The notes under the pieces: generated by a model
Seen by the model: the letters and a program-made list of their open reading frames with translations, nothing else
Told to the model about the DNA's origin: nothing
Database searches by the model: none
Program-made: the position numbers and the translations under genes
NCBI GenBank assembly: GCA_964424315.1
Contig: CAYRIG010000001.1
Coordinates: 1 to 24,129 of the forward strand
Length of the DNA: 24,129 nt
Direction of reading: 5' to 3'
Origin: an uncultured Dehalococcoidia bacterium
GTDB lineage: Bacteria; Chloroflexota; Dehalococcoidia; Lucifugimonadales; OSU-TB39
Shown: piece after piece, positions 4,988 through 20,911 of the stretch
Numbering within the stretch: the stretch's first letter is position 1
Layout of the letters: each line of letters begins with the position of its first letter

Positions 4988-6082
4988 TCAATTTAAGTCT
5001 AAGCTCCTTATCTCCAATCTTGAAGCCGTTTCTTGTATGAATTCAACAACCTCTTTATGCAAAGGAATTCCATTAAGTAATCTGTCATTTTCATCTTTGA
5101 ATTCTGGCAACCCTGGATATAAAACTTCGTTAAACCCAGGGGCTGGTTTAGAATCCACCAATTTACCCAACATATCGTCCATATTTTTCTTAAATTCATT
5201 TAAATCAGTAAATGCAGATATGTCATAAGCAGCAAAAAGATGTTTGTTGGTGGCTTCATGACCTTCCAGCATACTAGGTATGCCTCCAGACATTAGAGAA
5301 CACATTATTTCATTTACTAAAGATAAGCCATATCCCTTGTGTGACCCTATTTCCCTAGTACCACCAAGTGGTAACAATGGAGGAATATCAATATGATCTT
5401 CTACTTTATATTCTTCCATTATAGGAACACCATTTTCGTCAGACACCCACCCAGGCATTAATTTTTTACCACTCCTTTGAGCTAACCTAACCTTATTTCC
5501 TGCAACCGAACATGTTGCAGCATCAAATAAGAATGTTGGCTTGTTATTTGTTGGGGCCGCCACTGCTATTGGATTTGTTCCTAATAAAGGCTCAGCAGAA
5601 AAAGTTGGAACAACCCTCAGGCCTCCGGTGGTCATGCACATCCCTAACATATCTTCTTTAGCGGCTATCAAAGCATGATGTCCTATCGCTCCCGAATGAC
5701 CTGCATTTCTCATTGTCACAATGCCAACACCTACCTTTTTGGCTTTTTGTATCGCTATCTTCATTGCCTTTGGTCCTAAAATTATGGCTAATCCAGTATC
5801 GGCATCTACAGTGGCAGTTGATGGCGACTCTTTTACAATTTTCCAATTTGCTCTTGGTTTAATTATTTGATCTTTATAATAACTAATATATTCTTTCAAC
5901 ATATTAGAAACACCATGGCTTTCTACCCCCCGCAAATCCGATTCGACTAACACTTCAGATGCAATAGTTGCATCTTCAATAGTCTCTCCCATCCTTTCAA
6001 ATATTTGTTTAACAGTTTCCCTTAAATCCTTATGGTCTACACGAACTTGGTCTTTAGTTGGTACTTTAAAACGTTCTAACAT
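4988..6082 (-). CDS. Ldh_2-family (type 2 malate/L-lactate/sulfolactate dehydrogenase-like) oxidoreductase; substrate unknown
   Basis: SDLRGVESHG, HSGAIG, GTNPIAVAAP, DAAT, HKGYGL, LYPG. Preferred start is ATG 6082 (MLERF, AGGAG upstream) rather than the ORF-track start at 6145. Confidence 0.88.
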   Translation of the reverse strand: MLERFKVPTKDQVRVDHKDLRETVKQIFERMGETIEDATIASEVLVESDLRGVESHGVSNMLKEYISYYKDQIIKPRANWKIVKESPSTATVDADTGLAIILGPKAMKIAIQKAKKVGVGIVTMRNAGHSGAIGHHALIAAKEDMLGMCMTTGGLRVVPTFSAEPLLGTNPIAVAAPTNNKPTFLFDAATCSVAGNKVRLAQRSGKKLMPGWVSDENGVPIMEEYKVEDHIDIPPLLPLGGTREIGSHKGYGLSLVNEIMCSLMSGGIPSMLEGHEATNKHLFAAYDISAFTDLNEFKKNMDDMLGKLVDSKPAPGFNEVLYPGLPEFKDENDRLLNGIPLHKEVVEFIQETASRLEIRSLDLN

Positions 6083-6199
6083 GAGTTTTCTCCTACAATG
6101 AATTTTTGAACTATAGATTTGCAGTAAATATAACTCCAGTTCCAATACAATATATTTATTTATATTTAAACTCTAGATATATACAAAAGAAATTCTTTA

Positions 6200-11311: not shown

Positions 11312-12781
11312 GTGAAACAACAACGGACAATCTATTTTAACGACGCCAGACATTACTATTTATTCGTGTTCGAGCCTCCAATGACATTAGAAGATGCATG
11401 CCGGCCTATAGACGAATGTTCAGGCACATCGATAGATACTTTCATTTACGGAGTAGCTAGAGCTGATGGTCTTTTTTATAATTCGAAAGCAGGAATGCAG
11501 TTCAAGCATGGCGAACATGGAACAGATTCACCTGGATTTAAGCAGGCTGCTTATTGGCGACTATGGAATAACCTACAAAGTTTAATTGATAGAGGCATAG
11601 ATCCATTATCAGTCCTTATAGATAAAGCCCATTCACAAAACATGGAGTTTTTCGCTAGCTTACGGCTAGGTGCTTACGGTGGAATCAACCCTGAATTCCT
11701 ACTGGAAAACGGGGGTGGCGGATTTTTGCACCGGGAGGTTAGAAACCATCAATCAAAGGTGTTAAAAGAACTTGCTGATGATTATCAAACTGACGGTTTG
11801 GAACTTGATTTTGCAGCCCCTCCTGCCGGAGACAGTTATTTATTGCCTGAAAATCATACACTTGAAGATAAAGGCATTATAACCGACTGGGTTTCAGAGA
11901 TATCTTCGATAGTTAAAAATCGTAATAAGCCAAAGGTTTTGGGTGCTAGAATTTACCCAACTGAAAGATTAAATTTATCTGCGGGCATCGATGTAAAAAA
12001 GATGATATCTGAAGGTTTATTAGATTATGTGACCCCAATGATATATGGATACAATATATTAGATTCTAACATGCCAATAGAATGGTTAATTGATTTAACT
12101 AAAAACTCTGATACTTCAGTTTATCCAATGCTCCAGCCAAGGTATCACGATAATGAAAATGACCTATATCAATTAGAATACGCAACCCCTGAGATGATGT
12201 ATGCGTCAGCAGCCAATTTTTATGATAAAGGTGCAGATGGACTCTATACCCATTCCCTGCAATGGCCCTTATCTGCGACAGAAACAAGGATTCTTTCAGG
12301 TATTGGCAATAAATCAGTGCTGAAAGAAAAAAATAAACATTATTTTATCAATAGAGCAACCGATATTATCTCCAAAGTGGATTATAAAACCCATCTTCCA
12401 ATCACTATTCCAATAGAAAAAATTGGCGCACCACATCCGCTAGAATTTTATATCTCTGACGACGTAGAAAACCTATCAGAAAGAATCACGGAGATTACAT
12501 TTAAAATCCGCATACATGATCTTGTCTCCGCAGACCAGATAAATCTCAATTTAAACGGGAAATCCATAATAAATGAAACCTGTAAAAGAAGTTACGGAGA
12601 TGTTAAACCATATAACCTGATGTGGCTAGAATTCACTCTGGAAAAAGTTCGCCCGTGTAAGGGAAAGAATATTCTTGAGATTATTCTAGTAGAAAGAGCG
12701 AAAGACCTTATAAGTCCTATCCGTATTGAGGACGTCGAAATAATTATTGAATATGGTTCATATCCAACAACTTCAGGTTAA
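11312..12781 (+). CDS. Uncharacterised TIM-barrel protein resembling glycoside-hydrolase-like family 10 (GHL10/DUF187), with a C-terminal beta-rich domain
   Basis: YFNDA, IDTFIY, MEFFASLR, DGLELDF, GLLDYV, GADGLY strand pattern; no signal peptide. Confidence 0.55.
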   Translation: MKQQRTIYFNDARHYYLFVFEPPMTLEDACRPIDECSGTSIDTFIYGVARADGLFYNSKAGMQFKHGEHGTDSPGFKQAAYWRLWNNLQSLIDRGIDPLSVLIDKAHSQNMEFFASLRLGAYGGINPEFLLENGGGGFLHREVRNHQSKVLKELADDYQTDGLELDFAAPPAGDSYLLPENHTLEDKGIITDWVSEISSIVKNRNKPKVLGARIYPTERLNLSAGIDVKKMISEGLLDYVTPMIYGYNILDSNMPIEWLIDLTKNSDTSVYPMLQPRYHDNENDLYQLEYATPEMMYASAANFYDKGADGLYTHSLQWPLSATETRILSGIGNKSVLKEKNKHYFINRATDIISKVDYKTHLPITIPIEKIGAPHPLEFYISDDVENLSERITEITFKIRIHDLVSADQINLNLNGKSIINETCKRSYGDVKPYNLMWLEFTLEKVRPCKGKNILEIILVERAKDLISPIRIEDVEIIIEYGSYPTTSG

Positions 12782-12784
12782 TTT

Positions 12785-13789
12785 TTATTGCGTAATGTCG
12801 GCTCTCAAATTGTTTGCCTTCAACAATTCAATGTTAACTATATTTTCAGGTGTTTTGCCAATCAAAACGTCTCCAACCTGACCTGCTGCTCGTTGTTCTA
12901 GTTCAAGTACAGCTTCCTGTGAAAAAAATGCAGTGTGAGGAGTCACTATAATATTTTCATTTTTGATTAACCTGTGATTTGTATCAGGTTTTATATCAAC
13001 CAAAACATCTACCCCTGCACCCGCAATAGTTTGCGAATTTATTGCTTCATGTAAAGCATCTTCATCAATCAATCCTCCTCGAGCGCAATTAATAAGAAAT
13101 GCATCATCCCTCATCATTCTAAATTGTTCATTGCCAAACATATTTGCAGTAGCAGGTATAAGAGGAGAATGTAAAGTGACAAAATGAGACTGCGCCAATA
13201 AATCGTCTAATTCAACTTTTTTAACTTCCAATTGATTCATAAAATTAGAGTCGATCATTGGGTCAAAAGATAAAACTTCCAGTCCAAACGCTTGTGCTTT
13301 TTTAGCTACCATCCTACCTATTCTCCCAAAACCAACAATTCCTAGCTTTTTGCCCCTTAACCTCATTATACGCATGCCCAATCCAGCATTTCCCCAACCT
13401 GATAATTTAGTATCATTATTATGCAAAACTATTTTTCTGTTCCATGCCAACAAAAGCCCCATTACATGGTCAGATACTTCGTCTACACAATAATCTGGTA
13501 CATATGTTACAATAATCCCTTGCTTCGTTGCTTCTCCCACATCAATGTTGTCAACTCCAACCCCGAACCTACCAATTACCTTACAATTTTTGGCTGAATT
13601 AACAACGTTATCTGTAACTTTGGCAAAACAAGTCAATATACCATCAACTTCTTTAGCTAGGTCTACTAAGGTATCTTCATTTCCATCAGGTGCAACTATC
13701 AACTCAATACCATATTTGGCCAATACTTTCTTCTCTGGTTCTACTGAAGGCCATACATAATCGGTAATAAGAACTTTTTTTGCCGACAT
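12785..13789 (-). CDS. D-isomer-specific 2-hydroxyacid dehydrogenase (CtBP/SerA-like)
   Basis: GRFGVGVDNID, GIVGFGRIG, TLHSPL, INCARG, VTPHTAFFS. ATG 13789 preferred (GAGGT RBS); GTG 13795 is an alternative. Confidence 0.9.
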   Translation of the reverse strand: MSAKKVLITDYVWPSVEPEKKVLAKYGIELIVAPDGNEDTLVDLAKEVDGILTCFAKVTDNVVNSAKNCKVIGRFGVGVDNIDVGEATKQGIIVTYVPDYCVDEVSDHVMGLLLAWNRKIVLHNNDTKLSGWGNAGLGMRIMRLRGKKLGIVGFGRIGRMVAKKAQAFGLEVLSFDPMIDSNFMNQLEVKKVELDDLLAQSHFVTLHSPLIPATANMFGNEQFRMMRDDAFLINCARGGLIDEDALHEAINSQTIAGAGVDVLVDIKPDTNHRLIKNENIIVTPHTAFFSQEAVLELEQRAAGQVGDVLIGKTPENIVNIELLKANNLRADITQ

Positions 13790-13817
13790 ATTCACACCTC
13801 TTTATTAATTATCATAC

Positions 13818-15431
13818 TTACATGACCATCGGATTAAATTGACACCCGTCTACAAATAAATCAAAGAAGTCTTCTGTAGTTTCAAGTTCAATATGTTCTA
13901 TATTCTTACATATTTCTTCTATTTGCGATCTCAATCTGCCCGAAAGCAGCATCTGGGTAGCCCCTTCAAGAGCTGTATTACCCACGCGATGTATATTTTC
14001 ATATCTTACATTGGCAATAAACCCAATCCTGACAGCATTTTCAACATCTATATAGTTCCCAAAACCGCCAGCAATATACATTGTCGGAATATCTTCGGCG
14101 GCTATCCCATATTCTCTTAAAACTATCTTTTGACCACAATAATTTGCAGATTTTGCCTGCGCTAATGCACTGATATCGCTTCTAGACAAAGAAAGATTAT
14201 ATTCGGGTGCAATAATAAATTCACTCAAACCATTTTCCAAGACTCCCAGGTAATTCATTTTGCCCGATTTTTTGAGTTCTGCTAGAAGATCTATCAATCC
14301 TGAACCGCAAATGCCTGTTGGTTTAACCTCAGATATTGTTTTATATTTGACTCTATCTCCCTCAAATTGAACGTGCTCTATTGCTCCATCATATGCAGGC
14401 ATCCCATATTGAATTTCACCACCTTCAAAAGCAGGGCCCGCAGGGCAAGAAGCAGCAATCATTCTATTTTTGTTCCCTACAACAACTTCTGTATTCGTTC
14501 CGACATCCACTAACATAGAAACCTGTTCGTTTTGACCCATGCCAACAGCAAGTAAATCAGCTGCCACATCTGAACCGACATGGCATCCTATTAAAGGCCC
14601 TCCATATACATTCGCTTCAGGAAACACTCGTAACCCAATTTGTTTAGCTTTTATATTTAACGCTGTGGTTGTAATTTTGTTTTGGTTAAATTCAATCTCA
14701 ACCTTTGATTTATATGGTTTTTCTCCTATGCTACTTACATCTAATCCAAAGAGAAGGTCTCTCATAGTCGCATTACCTACTACCACTATTTCATAAATAC
14801 ACCTTCTGTGGAATTTCAACTTTCTGCTCATCAACCCAATTTCAAAATTTATTGATGAAATCATCACTTTTTGTAATTCACCATTATATTCAGAGGTGTC
14901 GTATGAAATTCTATTCATTACATCGCTGCCCCCGAATTTTTGAGGGTTTTCAAAAGAAGTTATATATTTAATTTCCCCAGTTTCTAAATCCAATAAATTC
15001 ATGACCACTGTAGTGGTTCCAACGTCTATAGCTATTCCATAAATAAACCCTTTGAATTTATCTATTATTTTGCCATTGTAATAAACATTCTCTCCGCATC
15101 TTTGAGTTAAACTATCCAACTCTACTTCTCTTTTTACTGATTCAGTCAAAATTTTTGGCTGCCTGCGTAGTACATTAAACTCAACTTCAGCATTAGCATC
15201 GCCGATGGAGGCCTGACATGCTAAACGAAACCCTTCAGTCAGAAATGATTCTGCAGGCATAGGAGGGTTTAAAGAAGAGGCGCCCTTTTTAACCTCTACT
15301 ATACATTCATGACATTTCCCATTACGGCCACAGGAAGTTGGCACCCGCACATTTAAAATATCGGCATATTCAAATAAGGTTTTATTTGAAACAGATTCTA
15401 GTTTTTGATCGCTATAATTGACAGGAGCCAT
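13818..15431 (-). CDS. RACo/RamA-type ATP-dependent reductive activator of corrinoid proteins (N-terminal [2Fe-2S] plus ASKHA domain)
   Basis: CGRNGKCHEC...RLACQ ferredoxin motif; AIDVGTTT, DVGTNTE, SCPAGPAFEG, GICGSG, AGGFG, GNTALEGA. Confidence 0.92.
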   Translation of the reverse strand: MAPVNYSDQKLESVSNKTLFEYADILNVRVPTSCGRNGKCHECIVEVKKGASSLNPPMPAESFLTEGFRLACQASIGDANAEVEFNVLRRQPKILTESVKREVELDSLTQRCGENVYYNGKIIDKFKGFIYGIAIDVGTTTVVMNLLDLETGEIKYITSFENPQKFGGSDVMNRISYDTSEYNGELQKVMISSINFEIGLMSRKLKFHRRCIYEIVVVGNATMRDLLFGLDVSSIGEKPYKSKVEIEFNQNKITTTALNIKAKQIGLRVFPEANVYGGPLIGCHVGSDVAADLLAVGMGQNEQVSMLVDVGTNTEVVVGNKNRMIAASCPAGPAFEGGEIQYGMPAYDGAIEHVQFEGDRVKYKTISEVKPTGICGSGLIDLLAELKKSGKMNYLGVLENGLSEFIIAPEYNLSLSRSDISALAQAKSANYCGQKIVLREYGIAAEDIPTMYIAGGFGNYIDVENAVRIGFIANVRYENIHRVGNTALEGATQMLLSGRLRSQIEEICKNIEHIELETTEDFFDLFVDGCQFNPMVM

Positions 15432-15538
15432 TTGATTATCATTCCTTGTGAGTTTTAAATGTTAAATCAAACCACTTTTAAGCTTAAGATTTGACAAACT
15501 TTCTACACACTACGTAAGTCGAGGTTAGTATTAATTGA

Positions 15539-15784
15539 CTACACTTCCCAAGCATTACGATAATCTAACTTATCACTTCCTTTGCAAGGGAAAAGTGAAC
15601 CATCAGTGACGGATCTATCTTGATTCCTGCAACCAAATTTTGCAGTGCAATTATCGTCAGCATTTTTGTAAGGACATCGCCATTTAGAAACTTCTGTTAC
15701 ATTTAAAGCTATATTTTCATATATTGCTTCAAGCTTCTTTATGCTTTCGATATATCTATTCTTGTTTATTTTGCTAGAACTCAA
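15539..15784 (-). CDS. Small 4-Cys hypothetical protein (about 81 aa)
   Basis: C-x8-C-x5-C-x14-C (CPYKNADDNCTAKFGC...FPC). Probable start is TTG 15784, just after the corrinoid gene stop; the ORF-track start at 15847 overlaps that gene. Confidence 0.7.
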   Translation of the reverse strand: MSSSKINKNRYIESIKKLEAIYENIALNVTEVSKWRCPYKNADDNCTAKFGCRNQDRSVTDGSLFPCKGSDKLDYRNAWEV

Positions 15785-15807
15785 AGCTACATTTCCATTA
15801 GTTGAAA

Positions 15808-16539
15808 TTATTCTTGAATTGCTAAAGTTTTCGCAATTTCCACACAATCGATGGCATCTTTACCATAACCATCAGCACCCATATCATCGGCAAAGTCCTG
15901 AGTAACAGGAGCACCCCCTACCATAATCTTTACCTCTTCCCTCATCCCTTCATCTTCGAAAGCTTGTATGACTCTACCCATGTTGGGCATAGTGGTTGTA
16001 AGCAAAGCCGACATTCCCAATACTTTAGCTTCATGTTCTTGCACAGCATCGATAAATTCTTCTGGCTTTGTATCAACCCCTAAATCATGTACTACAAATC
16101 CAGCGCCCCTTAACATCATGATACACAAATTCTTCCCTATATCATGTAAGTCGCCTTTTACTGTACCCATAATCACAATACCTACAGGGGGTATATCTGA
16201 AGCTGAAAGAATTGGTTCTATATGTACCATTCCTGCTTTCATTGCTCTTGCAGAAATAAGAACCTCTGGCACAAAAATAATGTTGTCCCTAAATTTTATC
16301 CCTACAATAGCCATACCTGCTATTAAACCATCATCCATCACAGTATTAGCCGCAAATCCAGAGTTGAGAGCTTTTGAGGTTAATTGGTCAACAAGTTTAT
16401 CGTTACCTGTTATCAAAGCATATGCGATTTCCTGCATCAAGGGGTCTGTTTTCTCATACATTTCTTGGATGTGTTTTAATTCTGAAGGATTAGCAATGTG
16501 CTTCATCTCCTGCAACACACCCTCATTGACTATCGGCAT
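15808..16539 (-). CDS. Corrinoid (cobalamin-binding) methyl-carrier protein, MtbC/MttC-like (B12 cap plus B12-binding domains)
   Basis: Cap region FVPEVLISARAM; base-off/His-on motif GDLHDIGKNL; GMSALLTTTM, VGGAPVT, GADGYG. Confidence 0.95.
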   Translation of the reverse strand: MPIVNEGVLQEMKHIANPSELKHIQEMYEKTDPLMQEIAYALITGNDKLVDQLTSKALNSGFAANTVMDDGLIAGMAIVGIKFRDNIIFVPEVLISARAMKAGMVHIEPILSASDIPPVGIVIMGTVKGDLHDIGKNLCIMMLRGAGFVVHDLGVDTKPEEFIDAVQEHEAKVLGMSALLTTTMPNMGRVIQAFEDEGMREEVKIMVGGAPVTQDFADDMGADGYGKDAIDCVEIAKTLAIQE

Positions 16540-16578
16540 ATTTATACTCCAAACCTAAATCAAATTTTTCAAAATACC

Positions 16579-16584
16579 ATTATA
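16579..16584 (-). promoter_or_regulatory. Possible internal -10 box upstream of the corrinoid gene
   Basis: Perfect TATAAT on the minus strand about 40 nt before ATG 16539; no convincing -35. Confidence 0.3.
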
Positions 16585-16617
16585 CTCAACTATCGATAAA
16601 TAGTAACCTAAATGAAC

Positions 16618-17640
16618 TTATTGAAGTCTTCCATCTCTGTAGGCCTGTAGATAATTAACACAAAACTCATCCTTTCCTGTCAACATATCTATAGCCAAGC
16701 CCATTTTTTCAGAAGTTGTATCAATTTTATATACTTCTTCCAACTTTATTTGTATGGGATCTATCAAGCCTGCATTAATACCAGATTCTAGACCTAGGTA
16801 TATAAATGCCTGGTTAATTAATTTTCTCATTGGCATTCCAAATGAAACGTTGCTAAGACCCATACCTATATGTAACTGGCCCCCATATTCTTCCCTTATT
16901 TTTCTAACAGCATCAAAATAATGATTTCCGTATTCAGAATTGACTGAAATAGGAAATACAATTACATCTAAATAAATTTTATCCAACGAAAATCCTATTC
17001 GTGCCAATTCATCTAATATTTTTTTTGCATTTTCTATACGGTCATCTTCATCTTGGGGCATACCTGTTTCGCTAGTTGCCATTGCAATAACATTTGCTTT
17101 ATATGACAATGCCATCTCAAAAACTTCCGGGCGTTCAAAAGCCACTGAGTTAATTAGAGGAGAAACTCCATTATTTTTGTACGCTTTCAAACCAGCTTCG
17201 ATGATATCCGAGTTAGATGAATCTATACTGATTGGCACGGATGATGCTTTTTGCGCAACCTCAACAGTACGGGTCATGCATTTTTTCTGTATTTCTAAAT
17301 CATAATGTACTTCATCAACATTTATATCAACATAATCAGACCCCGCTTTAATTTGTTTATAAACAGCATTCTCAATATATTGTTCTCCTTCTAATTTCGC
17401 CTCTTCATCCTCCCCTATCAAATTAGTCATGGCTATTAGAAAATGCTTAATCTGTCCTTGTTGATATGGTTGGGTTTCTTTGAACCAATCAGGGACTTTC
17501 ATCAGGTTTTGGTCTCCAGATTTGTTTATGTAATTTACAGCCTCAAATCCGTCATCTGTCTTTACTATTCTTTTGCCATTCGAACGAAACACCCTCGTAG
17601 CATGGATGTTTTCACCTACAATTACAAATTTGTCGGGCAT
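16618..17640 (-). CDS. Methyltetrahydrofolate:corrinoid methyltransferase (AcsE / MetH pterin-binding domain family)
   Basis: IVGENI, AGSDYVDINVD, ISIDSS, LINSV, YLDVIVFPI, GLSNVSFGMP.RKLINQAF, LIDP; the conserved Asp/Asn pterin-binding positions are recognisable. Confidence 0.9.
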   Translation of the reverse strand: MPDKFVIVGENIHATRVFRSNGKRIVKTDDGFEAVNYINKSGDQNLMKVPDWFKETQPYQQGQIKHFLIAMTNLIGEDEEAKLEGEQYIENAVYKQIKAGSDYVDINVDEVHYDLEIQKKCMTRTVEVAQKASSVPISIDSSNSDIIEAGLKAYKNNGVSPLINSVAFERPEVFEMALSYKANVIAMATSETGMPQDEDDRIENAKKILDELARIGFSLDKIYLDVIVFPISVNSEYGNHYFDAVRKIREEYGGQLHIGMGLSNVSFGMPMRKLINQAFIYLGLESGINAGLIDPIQIKLEEVYKIDTTSEKMGLAIDMLTGKDEFCVNYLQAYRDGRLQ

Positions 17641-17685
17641 ATCACTAAAATTTCTCCGTTTATTTTATAGAAGGCTGGAGGCTTC

Positions 17686-18726
17686 TCAGCCTACCGAGTT
17701 TTCCTCAGTCCATTCTTTTACAGCCTTTGGTATTTCAAGCAAATTTTCTAACTTGGTGGCTAACGGTATCGCGCACTCAGGTGCTATAAGAGGAACTCCC
17801 GCATCCAAACACCTATACACTTCCTCTCTAACATCCTGTGGTCCTTTACTATATAAAGTAACCGGGTTATTAACATTACCAACAAGTTGTATTCGCCCAT
17901 CAACTATTTCCATCGCTTTAGCAGGGTCATTTCTAGAATCAAAATGAAAGGCAGCCATTTTATTTTGTGCTATATAATCCATCCTGTCCAAAGTATAACC
18001 ACAAATATGCAATATCAGAGGAACTTTTAACTCTTCTACAGCTTCTTGATGTATATCTAACAAAAACCTTTTATAATATTCTCCGCTTACTAAATCTCCT
18101 GTAGCATGGTCAGGGTATGTTAATACATCTGCTCCTGCGTCAATTTGCGCTTGACCAAATAATACAGATATCTCTTTTAATTTATCTAAGCACTTGATAG
18201 TCAATGCAGGATCATCAATTGACATAAGTAAAAAGGTTTCTACTCCAAAAACATGGTATGCCAAGGTCCACGGGCCCATAGTTTTACCAATAATTGCAAC
18301 CTCATCACCAAATTCTTGCTTTAGTATTTTTATTGAATCTATGATTGCCACATTATCTTGATGCTGTAAAAAATTATTTGGGATATTGATATCTTCAACA
18401 GATTTCCAAATAGGATTACTCATTCTCACAGTAGGCCAATTATCTTTCTGTTCCCATTGCATTTCACAACCCAATGCTGAAGATTCCTGAATAATAGTAA
18501 AATATGGAGCTATTGAATCAAACCCCAATTCTGTATACCCCGTAGAAGCTAATCTTGCATTAAGTTCAGGGTCTCTACAAGCATCTGGGAAAGGCGCATC
18601 GACTAAATCCATAAGCTCAACTGTTGCTACGTTCGTTGGATTTGAGACAGGAGTGCGATCAACCGGTAATCCATTAAGTGCATTCATAACTCTTTCTTTA
18701 GGCGTCATTTTTTCAATTGTAACCAT
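17686..18726 (-). CDS. MtaA/CmuA-family (UroD-fold) Zn-dependent corrinoid methyltransferase
   Basis: MTPKERV...DRTPV start, GPWTLA, ILHICG and APEC (putative His-x-Cys...Cys Zn ligands), VGNVNN; lacks the HemE RQAGR motif. ATG 18726 follows GGAGG. Confidence 0.88.
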   Translation of the reverse strand: MVTIEKMTPKERVMNALNGLPVDRTPVSNPTNVATVELMDLVDAPFPDACRDPELNARLASTGYTELGFDSIAPYFTIIQESSALGCEMQWEQKDNWPTVRMSNPIWKSVEDINIPNNFLQHQDNVAIIDSIKILKQEFGDEVAIIGKTMGPWTLAYHVFGVETFLLMSIDDPALTIKCLDKLKEISVLFGQAQIDAGADVLTYPDHATGDLVSGEYYKRFLLDIHQEAVEELKVPLILHICGYTLDRMDYIAQNKMAAFHFDSRNDPAKAMEIVDGRIQLVGNVNNPVTLYSKGPQDVREEVYRCLDAGVPLIAPECAIPLATKLENLLEIPKAVKEWTEENSVG

Positions 18727-18768
18727 TGATTTCCTCCACATTTTCTTTAGTTAATAAGCATAAGTTTT

Positions 18769-19443
18769 TCATTCTTGGGTGGAAAACCCTAGAGTATTTG
18801 TAGTCATTTGGCCCCTCATTGAGTCGGCATCCAACATATCTTGTGTTCCAGTTATATTTCGAGCATAAGGAAGAATAATGCGAATCAATTTATCTCTTCG
18901 ATATCCTCCAGGGAACATTACTTTAGTATTGTCTATTTTCTCCATATTTCCATATCTTACCAATCCCTGAATTGTTGCACGTTTACGCAATTCTGGGTTT
19001 TTAAATTCACCAGTTGTTGTCACTTCATAAATAGTTCTCCCGTTGTTATCGGAAGAATTTATAATCAAGGTTAAAGGAGAGCGAAGATCTTTAATGCTAA
19101 TCACACCATCTGGATGCTTGTGGTCAGCCGGCTTTTCTACGGCTAGTTTTATCAAAAATTTTACTGGACGCTCATATAATTCTCCATTAGGAAACTTGGC
19201 TTGGTTATTAGTATTGGGCACAGAAACCATTCCGCCCAAATTGATTAGCTGATCTCTTATTTCACTTATCCTGATTGAAACACCTGGAACCTTACTAAAT
19301 GTCCAAACAGTGTAAATACCGTTTTTTTCATATAAACCCACGCTGATATTATTAAAGTTAGGGTCAATGGATATTAGTTCCGAACAACTTCCAATCCTAT
19401 CTAAAACATCCTTGATATTTTCTTTATTAGCTAATTGATTCAT
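18769..19443 (-). CDS. Hypothetical protein (224 aa) with an internal two-fold repeat
   Basis: Long ORF embedded co-directionally in the operon with short gaps; no family recognised. Confidence 0.8.
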   Translation of the reverse strand: MNQLANKENIKDVLDRIGSCSELISIDPNFNNISVGLYEKNGIYTVWTFSKVPGVSIRISEIRDQLINLGGMVSVPNTNNQAKFPNGELYERPVKFLIKLAVEKPADHKHPDGVISIKDLRSPLTLIINSSDNNGRTIYEVTTTGEFKNPELRKRATIQGLVRYGNMEKIDNTKVMFPGGYRRDKLIRIILPYARNITGTQDMLDADSMRGQMTTNTLGFSTQE

Positions 19444-19463
19444 TTTATTGCCTTATTACTTAT

Positions 19464-20357
19464 TTATATTTTATCGCTTGAGTAATTTGAAACAACAGAT
19501 TTTATGGCAGAAATATGATCAGGTGTTGTGCCACAACATCCCCCAAATATATTTATTTTTATATCAATTAATTCTTTAACCTTATCAGCCATAAATTCAG
19601 GAGTTTCAGGGTAAATTATCCTACCATTAACAATTTTAGGAAACCCAGCATTACTGTGTATGACTAAAGGTCCGTCATCTACGGTTCTCATTATTTTCGC
19701 TATTTTAACCATGTTTTCTATACCATTTCCACAATTTGTTCCTACAGCATCTGCACCTTTTTTCCTAATTTCTTTAACCGCCTCTTCAGGAGTTACCCCC
19801 ATCATGGTAAAAAACCCCCTAGGACCTAAATCAAATGTCATTGTAGCCATTACCACTAAATTCGTGTTTCGTTTTGCAGATTCTACGGCCAAAAGAGTTT
19901 CTTCTAAAGAAGTCATGGTTTCTATTATTACTCCATCTGCTCCACCTTTCTCTAATGCCTGAATCTGTTCTGTAAATCCATCAAACATTTCCTGTTCACT
20001 CACAGGTCCTAAAGGTTGTAAGAATTCACCCGTAGGACCAACTGAACCGACAACAAATTTATCTCTAGGACATACACTCTTTGCATGTTGTGCCGCTTTC
20101 ATATTAATTTTTACCAAATCTTCTCTTAACCCATATTTAGCCAGCATGAAAGGATTACCGCCAAATGAATTTGTTAAAACTAAATCAGCTCCGCTTTTAA
20201 AATAATCATCTGCCATTTTGACAATCAAACCAGGATTGGTTAGGTTGAGCTCCTCAGGACATCCTCCCGGCTCCAATCCATTGCTCTGCAAATAAGTTCC
20301 TGTCGCACCGTCTGATAATAGATTGGAGCCACTTTCAATTTTTTTTAGCAAATCCAT
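19464..20357 (-). CDS. Stand-alone homocysteine S-methyltransferase domain protein (MetH N-terminal / Bmt-like)
   Basis: SDGATGT, GADLVLTNSFGG, GSVGPTG, IIETM, Zn ligands GTNC and GGCCGT. Preferred start is ATG 20357 (MDLLKK). Confidence 0.93.
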   Translation of the reverse strand: MDLLKKIESGSNLLSDGATGTYLQSNGLEPGGCPEELNLTNPGLIVKMADDYFKSGADLVLTNSFGGNPFMLAKYGLREDLVKINMKAAQHAKSVCPRDKFVVGSVGPTGEFLQPLGPVSEQEMFDGFTEQIQALEKGGADGVIIETMTSLEETLLAVESAKRNTNLVVMATMTFDLGPRGFFTMMGVTPEEAVKEIRKKGADAVGTNCGNGIENMVKIAKIMRTVDDGPLVIHSNAGFPKIVNGRIIYPETPEFMADKVKELIDIKINIFGGCCGTTPDHISAIKSVVSNYSSDKI

Positions 20358-20370
20358 TTCCAGTTTATCC

Positions 20371-20730
20371 TTAATATTCCATCCAATGGTCATAGGCACC
20401 AGGATCAGTTTTTCTTTTGCCTTCTCTGTCTAAATCCCTAATTCTTGCCACAAAGTCTTGTGGGAATTTCTCATTAAATCTATTAACCGTATCGTTCAAA
20501 ATATTGTTTATTTCCCCTTGTACAAAAAACGCTTCTCCCCAAATGAATCCGTTTAAATAATCGTCACTCCCATAACTATTTTCAAACATAGCGATAGCAT
20601 CAGCACCTTCTTGGAATCTATTATCTAATTGCCCAGATAATTTATCACCACCAAACACAACTTCTACTTGTAATGGGATTTCTTTCCAGTACAAAATACG
20701 AACACTGATATTTTCTACTTTATTGTTCAT
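20371..20730 (-). CDS. Small protein resembling the PF13769 'virulence factor' family
   Basis: ILYWKEIPLQV...LDNRFQEGADAIAM...SDDYL matches my recollection of the family pattern YW.DIP.QV...L..RF..A.D..AM....D.YL. ATG 20730 preferred. Confidence 0.7.
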   Translation of the reverse strand: MNNKVENISVRILYWKEIPLQVEVVFGGDKLSGQLDNRFQEGADAIAMFENSYGSDDYLNGFIWGEAFFVQGEINNILNDTVNRFNEKFPQDFVARIRDLDREGKRKTDPGAYDHWMEY

Positions 20731-20824
20731 TTTCTTTTCAAATTGATTCAGTACACTAATTACCAAAGATTAATCCACCTTAATCAACAATGTCTAAATA
20801 AAATAATGGCATTTAGTTAAAGGT

Positions 20825-20830
20825 ATTATA
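20825..20830 (-). promoter_or_regulatory. Possible -10 box for the methyltransferase operon
   Basis: Perfect TATAAT on the minus strand about 95 nt upstream of ATG 20730, back-to-back with the amidase promoter; -35 not evident. Confidence 0.3.
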
Positions 20831-20845
20831 CTATTTTTATATTTG

Positions 20846-20874
20846 TTGACCGTGATAAAAACCAATGTTAGACT
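20846..20874 (+). promoter_or_regulatory. Candidate sigma70 promoter for the amidase gene
   Basis: TTGACC (20846-20851), 17 bp, TAGACT (20869-20874), with an extended -10 TG. Confidence 0.65.
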
Positions 20875-20911
20875 CGAAATTGTTTGATTGTTTAATTTGG
20901 TAAGGTGAAAA

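Follow-up and report, generated by a model that had tools for sequence, protein, structure and literature searches.

The window analysed here is a stretch of 24,129 nucleotides from an uncultured Dehalococcoidia bacterium (contig CAYRIG010000001.1, positions 1 to 24,129, assembly GCA_964424315.1), and its positions 12785-20766 carry nine co-directional open reading frames (ORFs) on the minus strand, separated by intergenic gaps of 20-107 nt. The original prediction saw in them a corrinoid 'methyl switchboard' that comprises a split methionine synthase (MetH) and an extra methyltransferase module; the ORF listing bears out the nine co-directional genes, and the Pfam and NCBIfam profile searches with which the gene families were called confirm the predicted assignments. 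Taken as a whole, the sequences incline us to the view that the putative operon encodes a modular hub for corrinoid-dependent methyl transfer in which a single B12 carrier is central, with a split-MetH arm and a second arm centered on an MtaA-like enzyme, and we hold this reading to be reasonably probable. The source metagenome-assembled genome (MAG; SAR202/Dehalococcoidia) comprises 1.93 Mb in 392 contigs and is 83.7% complete. Members of SAR202 occur in large numbers in the dark ocean, and bacteria related to them are dominant in certain sponge microbiomes.

The genes are designated g1 to g9 in the direction of the operon. Three of the products match successive parts of the MetH model TIGR02082: g2 (19464..20399), a stand-alone homocysteine (Hcy) S-methyltransferase of the MetH N-terminal type, similar to MtgE (PF02574, 218 bits), matches positions 8-316; g5 (16618..17640), a stand-alone pterin-binding methyl-tetrahydrofolate (methyl-THF):corrinoid methyltransferase resembling MeTr and MtgD (PF00809, 80 bits; NF005719, 202 bits), matches positions 375-615; and g6 (15808..16539), a His-on corrinoid carrier composed of a B12 cap and a Rossmann B12-binding domain (PF02607 and PF02310), matches positions 634-857. 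They are accompanied by g8 (13818..15431), an ATP-dependent reductive activase of the RACo/RamA type with Fer2, RACo_middle and RACo_C_ter domains, whose AcsV-like score of 326 bits lies under the NCBIfam equivalog cut-off. The claim that the AdoMet activation domain is replaced by RACo agrees both with these domains and with the searches of the MAG, in which neither a full-length MetH nor any match to the MetH activation region (positions ~900-1182) was found; the same searches give a provisional answer to the question, raised with the original prediction, of a separate full-length metH gene.

Five further genes complete the set. g4 (17686..18741) encodes a protein of the URO-D fold (PF01208), a zinc corrinoid methyltransferase of the MtaA/CmuA family. 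The 224-aa product of g3 (18769..19443) and the 81-aa product of g7 (15539..15784) match no Pfam or NCBIfam family. The first gene of the operon, g1 (20371..20730), which starts with ATG at 20730 or alternatively with TTG at 20766, encodes a small protein of the family PF13769 (Pfam, 43 bits), whose name 'Virulence_fact' is probably misleading here. The last gene, g9 (12785..13795), encodes a D-isomer-specific 2-hydroxyacid dehydrogenase (PF02826 and PF00389), short and similar to phosphoglycerate dehydrogenase and glyoxylate reductase, which scores below all NCBIfam equivalog cut-offs.

The catalytic motifs are invariant across 39-75 orthologues, depending on the gene. This holds for the zinc motifs GTNCG and GGCCG of g2, which supply a three-cysteine site (66 orthologues), for the sequence GDLHDIGKN of g6, which contains the D-x-H-x-x-G signature (65-66 orthologues), and for the H-x-C...C zinc ligands of g4 (75 orthologues), while g8 conserves the 2Fe-2S ligands C-x5-C-x2-C...C and the DVGTT motif of ASKHA proteins. 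g4, the most conserved protein of the cluster, exceeds the cut-offs of the MtaA/CmuA model TIGR01463 (249.7 vs 235.4 bits) and of NF004889 (264 vs 244), and stays far under those of the MtaA and MtbA equivalog models (233 vs 400 and 211 vs 600). It aligns with MtaA of Methanosarcina mazei (PDB 4AY7) over its full length (residues 6-339, E 1e-51), and its LHICG and APEC motifs are in register with the zinc ligands of MtaA. Identity with HemE is ruled out, the score being 75 bits against a cut-off of 303. In the UroD superfamily a His-Cys-Cys zinc sphere is the mark of S- or Se-methyltransferases, whereas O-demethylases lose the cysteines (Kountz and Balskus 2023, PMC10418091); g4 keeps both of them invariantly, and does not show the zinc ligands of an O-demethylase methyltransferase I. 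The g4 arm has a function apart from that of the split MetH, probably one linked to sulfur.

At an E-value threshold of 1e-5, none of the genes g1 to g8 has a paralogue in the MAG. g4 is its only URO-D family gene, g6 its only cap-type corrinoid protein and g8 its only RACo, and there is one Hcy module and one pterin module; no match to the MttB superfamily (PF06253) was found in the MAG. Because there is one cap-type corrinoid protein and one activase, sharing of the carrier is the simplest reading, and the original claim that one carrier serves several methyltransferases is probably right.

An invariant core with variable methionine synthase modules

To survey the conservation of the neighborhood, as had been proposed with the original prediction, the nine window proteins were compared by tblastn with 80 loci fetched with g3 as the probe; the counts below come from the 59 of them with full 10-kb flanks, which belong to Chloroflexota, Acidobacteriota and Entotheonella-type genomes. 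Across these phyla 57 of the 59 loci show a collinear arrangement, every detected gene lies on the same strand, and the gene tables of six places with differing surroundings all give the same order. Since the genes are collinear in so many loci with unrelated surroundings, the arrangement is far beyond chance.

The genes differ in how regularly they are present. g4 is found at all 59 loci, with a median identity to the window protein of 78% (range 70-83%); g3 is present at all 59 by construction, being the probe (median 51%); g1 follows with 56 loci (49%), g6 and g7 with 52 each (72% and 53%, respectively) and g2 with 51 (53%), while g8 is found at 34 (61%), g5 at 31 (54%) and g9 at 17 (60%). 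Of the residues of the window proteins, a fraction of 0.44 is invariant in g4, 0.42 in g6 and at most 0.23 in every other gene product. It is g3, g4, g6 and g7 that form the invariant core, and the Hcy (g2) and pterin (g5) modules that are the variable parts. The original prediction had it the other way round, with g3 and g4 as two extra genes inserted between the MetH modules. The dehydrogenase g9 was correctly assigned to its family, but its membership in the cluster is loose (17 loci, more than 10 paralogues in the MAG), and it is probably a peripheral, loosely attached last gene.

The nearest related locus belongs to an uncultured Dehalococcoidia MAG (98% identity). The g3 family comprises 231 clusters at 50% identity among 1.84 billion proteins, and occurs in at least 501 species-level genomes, mostly of Dehalococcoidia; a smaller part comes from Acidobacteriota and Entotheonella/Tectimicrobiota, and one is an Aminicenantes MAG. 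Distant relatives of g3 lie on contigs that do not extend far enough to reveal their neighbors. In a class-wide sample g4 was found in only 7 of 201 Dehalococcoidia genomes, too few for a contingency table at the level of the class, and the genomes behind the fetched loci were used instead.

At about two thirds of the loci unrelated genes (DUF4268, DUF433, Fic, MarR) lie between g3 and g4. A DUF4268 gene with one or two DUF433 genes occupies this position in ~33 of the 80 loci, including L013, L014 and L044, many of them from Dehalococcoidia. Fic, MarR or toxin-antitoxin-like genes accompany it at times; the window has no such insert. Clustering of the ORFs over the 80 loci revealed only DUF4268/DUF433-type inserts and antisense artefacts as extra neighbors.

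The position of g3 is always upstream of g4 (59 loci), from which we propose that it is the partner of g4. Its AlphaFold2 model (mean predicted local distance difference test score, pLDDT, of 85.9) comprises two alpha/beta repeats, which confirms an internal duplication, and a disordered, invariant C-terminal tail, RGQMTTGTLGF. Foldseek returned nothing below E 0.05 from the PDB and only the protein's own family from the AFDB clusters, the VIA wide search gave a best Z of 4.8 and no structural relative, and PDB sequence searches with g1 and g3 found no matches. The second orphan, g7, always follows g6 and is present at every locus that shows g6 (52 of 59). Its four cysteines, spaced C-x8-C-x5-C-x14-C, are invariant and its WRCPY and DYRxAW motifs are kept; the AlphaFold2 model (pLDDT 80) consists of a long N-terminal helix (residues 8-35) followed by a Cys-rich knot, for which the fold search found no match. 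Judged by position, g7 may bind metal and assist in loading or reducing the carrier, a role proposed because it occupies the same place as DUF1638 in roseobacters. Feature searches with g1 and with g7 led to no proteins outside the family of each, and g1 abuts g3 at the loci that have no g2. No relevant paper on PF13769 was found.

The probable split methionine synthase and MetH across genomes

The genomes behind the loci were searched for MetH (TIGR02082) and for orthologues of g2 and g5. None of the five closed genomes with an in-cluster g5 has MetH, while in the five closed genomes with a g5-less cluster a g5 orthologue was found nowhere and MetH was found in all five, at 1216-1696 bits. 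Five high-quality genomes of the sister family lack MetH and possess separate genes for the Hcy, pterin and corrinoid modules, of which that for the pterin module is often located away from the others. Among a further 35 genomes MetH is present in 13 of the 19 without g5 and in one of the 16 with it; this one (G009), the only genome with both g5 and MetH, has no g2 orthologue. With the window MAG counted, MetH was found in none of the 26 genomes that have stand-alone g2 and g5, and in 19 of the remaining 25. The claim that the split parts replace MetH agrees well with this distribution, and because of it g2, g5 and g6 (with g8) appear to act as a split MetH in place of the fused enzyme; the same pattern indicates that the core of g3, g4, g6 and g7 is retained for some other reason. 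Among the sampled genomes of the same order a split MetH was never found without g4: those lacking g4 have MetH, or only a fused Hcy-methyltransferase protein of ~630 aa, or nothing.

Core-bearing genomes without g5 possess MetH in 18 of 24 cases, at 1198-1700 bits. A role of g4 as a methyl-THF methyltransferase is ruled out, since MetH is kept in 18 of these 24 genomes, which have g2, g4 and g6. The other six (those behind the loci L039, L042, L051, L059, L082 and L092), closed or near-closed and representing three locus architectures, have no MetH and no PF01717 protein at E 1e-10, and each has a single PF00809 match, in all likelihood FolP, which spans the entire profile and scores 260-272 bits. 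The path from g4 through g6 to g2 appears to be the only recognisable methionine route in these six genomes, which favors g4 on the donor side of the carrier.

As for metE, the search suggested by the original prediction had a mixed outcome: the window MAG encodes two short proteins similar to the C-terminal part of MetE, of 339 and 359 aa (L005:1471-2490, minus strand, contig C50, and L006:1-1077, minus strand, contig C37), both below all equivalog cut-offs. These two core-MetE-like proteins could be methionine synthases that depend on corrinoid or in some other way do without folate. The cluster is the only MetH-type system of the MAG, and not provably its sole methionine synthase.

The proposed methyl-transfer hub and its alternatives

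In the hub that we propose, g8 would return Co(II) to Co(I) on g6, using ATP and its own 2Fe-2S domain, as expected for its family. In the first arm g5 would move the methyl group of methyl-THF to Co(I)-g6, and g2 would take it from methyl-Co(III) to zinc-activated homocysteine. In the second arm g4, together with g3, would work on the same carrier, as the single-copy genes suggest, and would most likely draw the methyl group for Co(I)-g6 from a small compound of methylated sulfur (or selenium), most likely a thioether. From g6 the methyl group would then pass to homocysteine, giving methionine, or to THF by g5 working in reverse, where g5 is present. A part in C1 catabolism, which the original prediction foresaw, is putative, as is any given substrate of the third methyltransferase. 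g1 and g7 would be accessory factors and g9 is probably peripheral, all of these being presumptive roles, as is that of g3. More specifically, and only as a tentative proposal, g3, g4, g6, g7 and g8 may demethylate a sulfur compound and hand its methyl group via cobalamin straight to homocysteine in aerobic marine and sponge-associated bacteria; methylmercaptopropionate, dimethylsulfide and methanethiol would be among the candidate donors.

In Phaeobacter inhibens genetic work has established a MetH in three parts, along with DUF1638 and a RamA-like activase (Price et al. 2018, PMC5764234). The cluster shares with it the stand-alone PF02574, PF00809 and cap plus B12-binding proteins, the ATP-dependent activase of the ferredoxin-DUF4445/RACo type that replaces the AdoMet activation domain, and the absence of a full-length MetH from the genome. 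It differs in that all the parts lie in one predicted operon, that DUF1638 is absent, that the MtaA-type methyltransferase, g3, the four-Cys g7 and the PF13769 protein are conserved parts, and that the host belongs to the Chloroflexota and not to the Alphaproteobacteria. In Ruegeria pomeroyi MtgC and MtgD serve both methionine synthesis, with MtgE, and glycine betaine demethylation, with MtgB (Mausz et al. 2025, PMC12478193). There, too, one corrinoid protein and one pterin methyltransferase work for an Hcy module and a substrate methyltransferase, with reactivation of the RamA type. However, the substrate arm MtgB belongs to the MttB superfamily (PF06253), whereas here its place is taken by a His-Cys-Cys zinc enzyme of the URO-D fold with g3, and the constant component is the substrate arm, not the pterin module. 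The original prediction knew of no characterised system with the same composition, and indeed no paper describing it was found, nor one on SAR202 and coenzyme M (CoM) methyltransferase; the concept, on the other hand, has the two precedents just named (PMC5764234, PMC12478193). The switchboard principle is already published, and the composition reported here is a version of it that was not found in the literature.

Other relatives of g4 function in different settings. MtaA, MtbA, MtsA and MtpA of Methanosarcina resemble it in the full-length alignment (4AY7), in the H-x-C...C ligands and in the use of a separate cap-type corrinoid protein, whereas the present hosts are bacterial and presumably aerobic marine organisms, a ComA-type gene of CoM synthesis was not found in the MAG, and the enzyme is coupled to homocysteine and folate modules with the orphan g3 as a proposed obligatory partner. 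MtsA and MtpA show that thioether demethylation is also possible in the methylcobamide:thiol methyltransferase family. O-demethylases and the chloromethane cmu pathway combine a URO-D-fold substrate methyltransferase, a corrinoid protein, a pterin methyltransferase and an activating enzyme. This four-component logic (methyltransferase I, corrinoid protein, methyltransferase II and activating enzyme) is the same here, but the zinc ligands are those of a sulfur-type enzyme, there is no CmuA-style fusion, a homocysteine module is added and the folate module is dispensable at half of the loci. Identity with a cmu system is ruled out by the absence of the CmuA fusion. Type 1 mlp clusters (PMC10418091) were likewise proposed to have an S/Se-methyl role on the grounds of their His-Cys-Cys site, but they are clusters of obligate anaerobes that combine two or three Mlp paralogues, at least Mlp2 and Mlp3, and lack modules for Hcy and folate; identity with them is ruled out by the single URO-D gene of the MAG and the presence of g5.

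The likeness to the methanogen enzymes raises the question of the direction in which g4 works. It could act on the acceptor side, as methanogen MtaA does, transferring the methyl group of methyl-Co(III)-g6, loaded by g5, to a thiol, sulfide or selenide and forming a methylthio metabolite or a volatile detoxification product, so that the hub would spread folate-derived methyl groups over two thiols. The nearest relatives of g4 are methylcobamide:CoM methyltransferases, a His-Cys-Cys zinc site activates thiolates, and g5 in this window is a possible donor module. However, 28 of the 59 loci have no in-cluster g5, and 24 genomes searched as a whole have no stand-alone pterin module at all, which would leave methionine, via a reversed g2, as the sole donor; a ComA-type gene was not found in the MAG, and the six genomes without MetH, MetE and pterin module fit a donor-side g4 better. 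We regard the acceptor-side function as rather unlikely.

A different kind of donor, with g4 as the entry point of methyl halides (as CmuA) or of O-methyl groups (as methyltransferase I of O-demethylases), would send the methyl group to THF via g5 for oxidation by MetF and FolD. TIGR01463 spans both MtaA and CmuA, the four-component layout agrees with what is generally known of O-demethylases and the cmu pathway, and metF (encoding MTHFR; 1388-2269) and folD (361-1248) lie in the window, yet these two genes are ~10 kb from the cluster and are not conserved with it in distant loci, and about half of the loci have no g5. The His-Cys-Cys sphere of g4 argues against O-methyl groups, since O-demethylases replace the cysteines (PMC10418091), and the separate g4 and g6 genes argue against methyl halides, CmuA being fused to its corrinoid domain; a tblastn search of plasmids with g4, aimed at CmuA on pCMU01, gave nothing above 27% identity. 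Such an entry point seems to us improbable.

It may also be asked if the core carries any methyl flux. The split synthase could require g3 and g4 for its structure, protection or regulation, for instance to hold the carrier or sense a thiol; the high shares of invariant residues in g4 (44%) and g6 (42%) suggest tight protein-protein contacts, and a split MetH was never seen without g4 in the sampled genomes of the same order. Every catalytic zinc ligand of g4 is invariant, however, and the core persists in 18 genomes with a complete MetH and no g5, hence with no split synthase to support, so that we give this idea very little credence. That a split MetH and an MtaA system are two unrelated systems, merely adjacent and with no common carrier, as the unrelated genes (DUF4268, DUF433, Fic, toxin-antitoxin-like) between g3 and g4 in many relatives might suggest, is scarcely believable in view of the only cap-type corrinoid protein and RACo in the MAG and the order that is collinear in 57 of 59 loci across phyla.

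Several observations weigh against the hub as proposed. DUF1638 (PF07796), required in the roseobacter system, has no match in the MAG, and since the MAG is 83.7% complete, the lack of MetH and of paralogues is a provisional result. The cluster need not be the sole methionine synthase of the MAG, because of the two core-MetE-like proteins, and the six MetH-less genomes each encode, among uninformative neighbors, one more stand-alone Hcy S-methyltransferase paralogue that might draw on a different methyl donor. The genomes compared are related and not phylogenetically independent, and their counts are descriptive rather than statistical. Finally, in the ORF clustering of the 80 loci no transporter or substrate-processing enzyme was co-conserved.

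If the hub is real, the methionine supply of SAR202 bacteria and their relatives would be B12-dependent through a disassembled synthase, B12 demand, methionine synthesis and organosulfur methyl cycling would be linked in these organisms, and the shared-carrier principle of roseobacters would extend to another phylum with a different substrate arm. If, in addition, sulfur compounds are stripped as tentatively proposed, methionine synthesis would be folate-independent and B12-dependent, and the only methionine route in six core-bearing genomes, and SAR202 would provide an unrecognised sink of organosulfur methyl groups in the deep ocean. The cluster offers, in g1, g3 and g7, three conserved candidate partners of corrinoid methyl transfer. 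As a rule of annotation, stand-alone Hcy, pterin, corrinoid and RACo proteins should together be counted as a methionine synthase; the rule follows from their complementarity with MetH, and such genomes would therefore not be miscalled methionine auxotrophs.

Surroundings of the cluster and minor observations

The divergent intergenic region between g1 and an amidase gene (20731..20911) presumably contains the promoter of the operon, with a TATAAT-like box, read from the sequence, near 20825. When the whole window was compared with Rfam at E <= 1 there were zero matches, and hence neither a SAM nor a cobalamin riboswitch was found. A search of RNA runs brought up no more than three metatranscriptomes, all from seawater and with a word share of 0.00, none of whose contigs align to the stretch. 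The flanks of the operon are unrelated to it; besides the amidase gene they include genes for a prepilin peptidase, the 489-aa protein described below, an SDR protein, ThyX and a transporter of the major facilitator superfamily. An Ldh_2-family dehydrogenase, of the family that includes the sulfolactate dehydrogenase ComC, is encoded at 4988-6145 on the minus strand; neither this gene nor those of FolD and MTHFR are kept beside the cluster in distant relatives.

hemE was undetected in the MAG, where g4 is the sole gene of the URO-D family; the classical haem branch is either missing or lies within the unassembled 16% of the MAG. In L107 the second Hcy S-methyltransferase gene adjoins hemD and a DNA methylase gene. 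In three SAR202 relatives without the cluster (G099, G114 and G159), in which corrinoid modules were not found, the Hcy-methyltransferase domain lies inside an ORF of ~630 aa, which we take to be possibly of the bifunctional Hcy S-methyltransferase/MTHFR type. The 489-aa protein encoded next to g9 (11312-12781, plus strand) has only a faint GHL10 match and more than 20 paralogues across the MAG, at 23-56% identity, and represents a strongly expanded family in this SAR202 genome.

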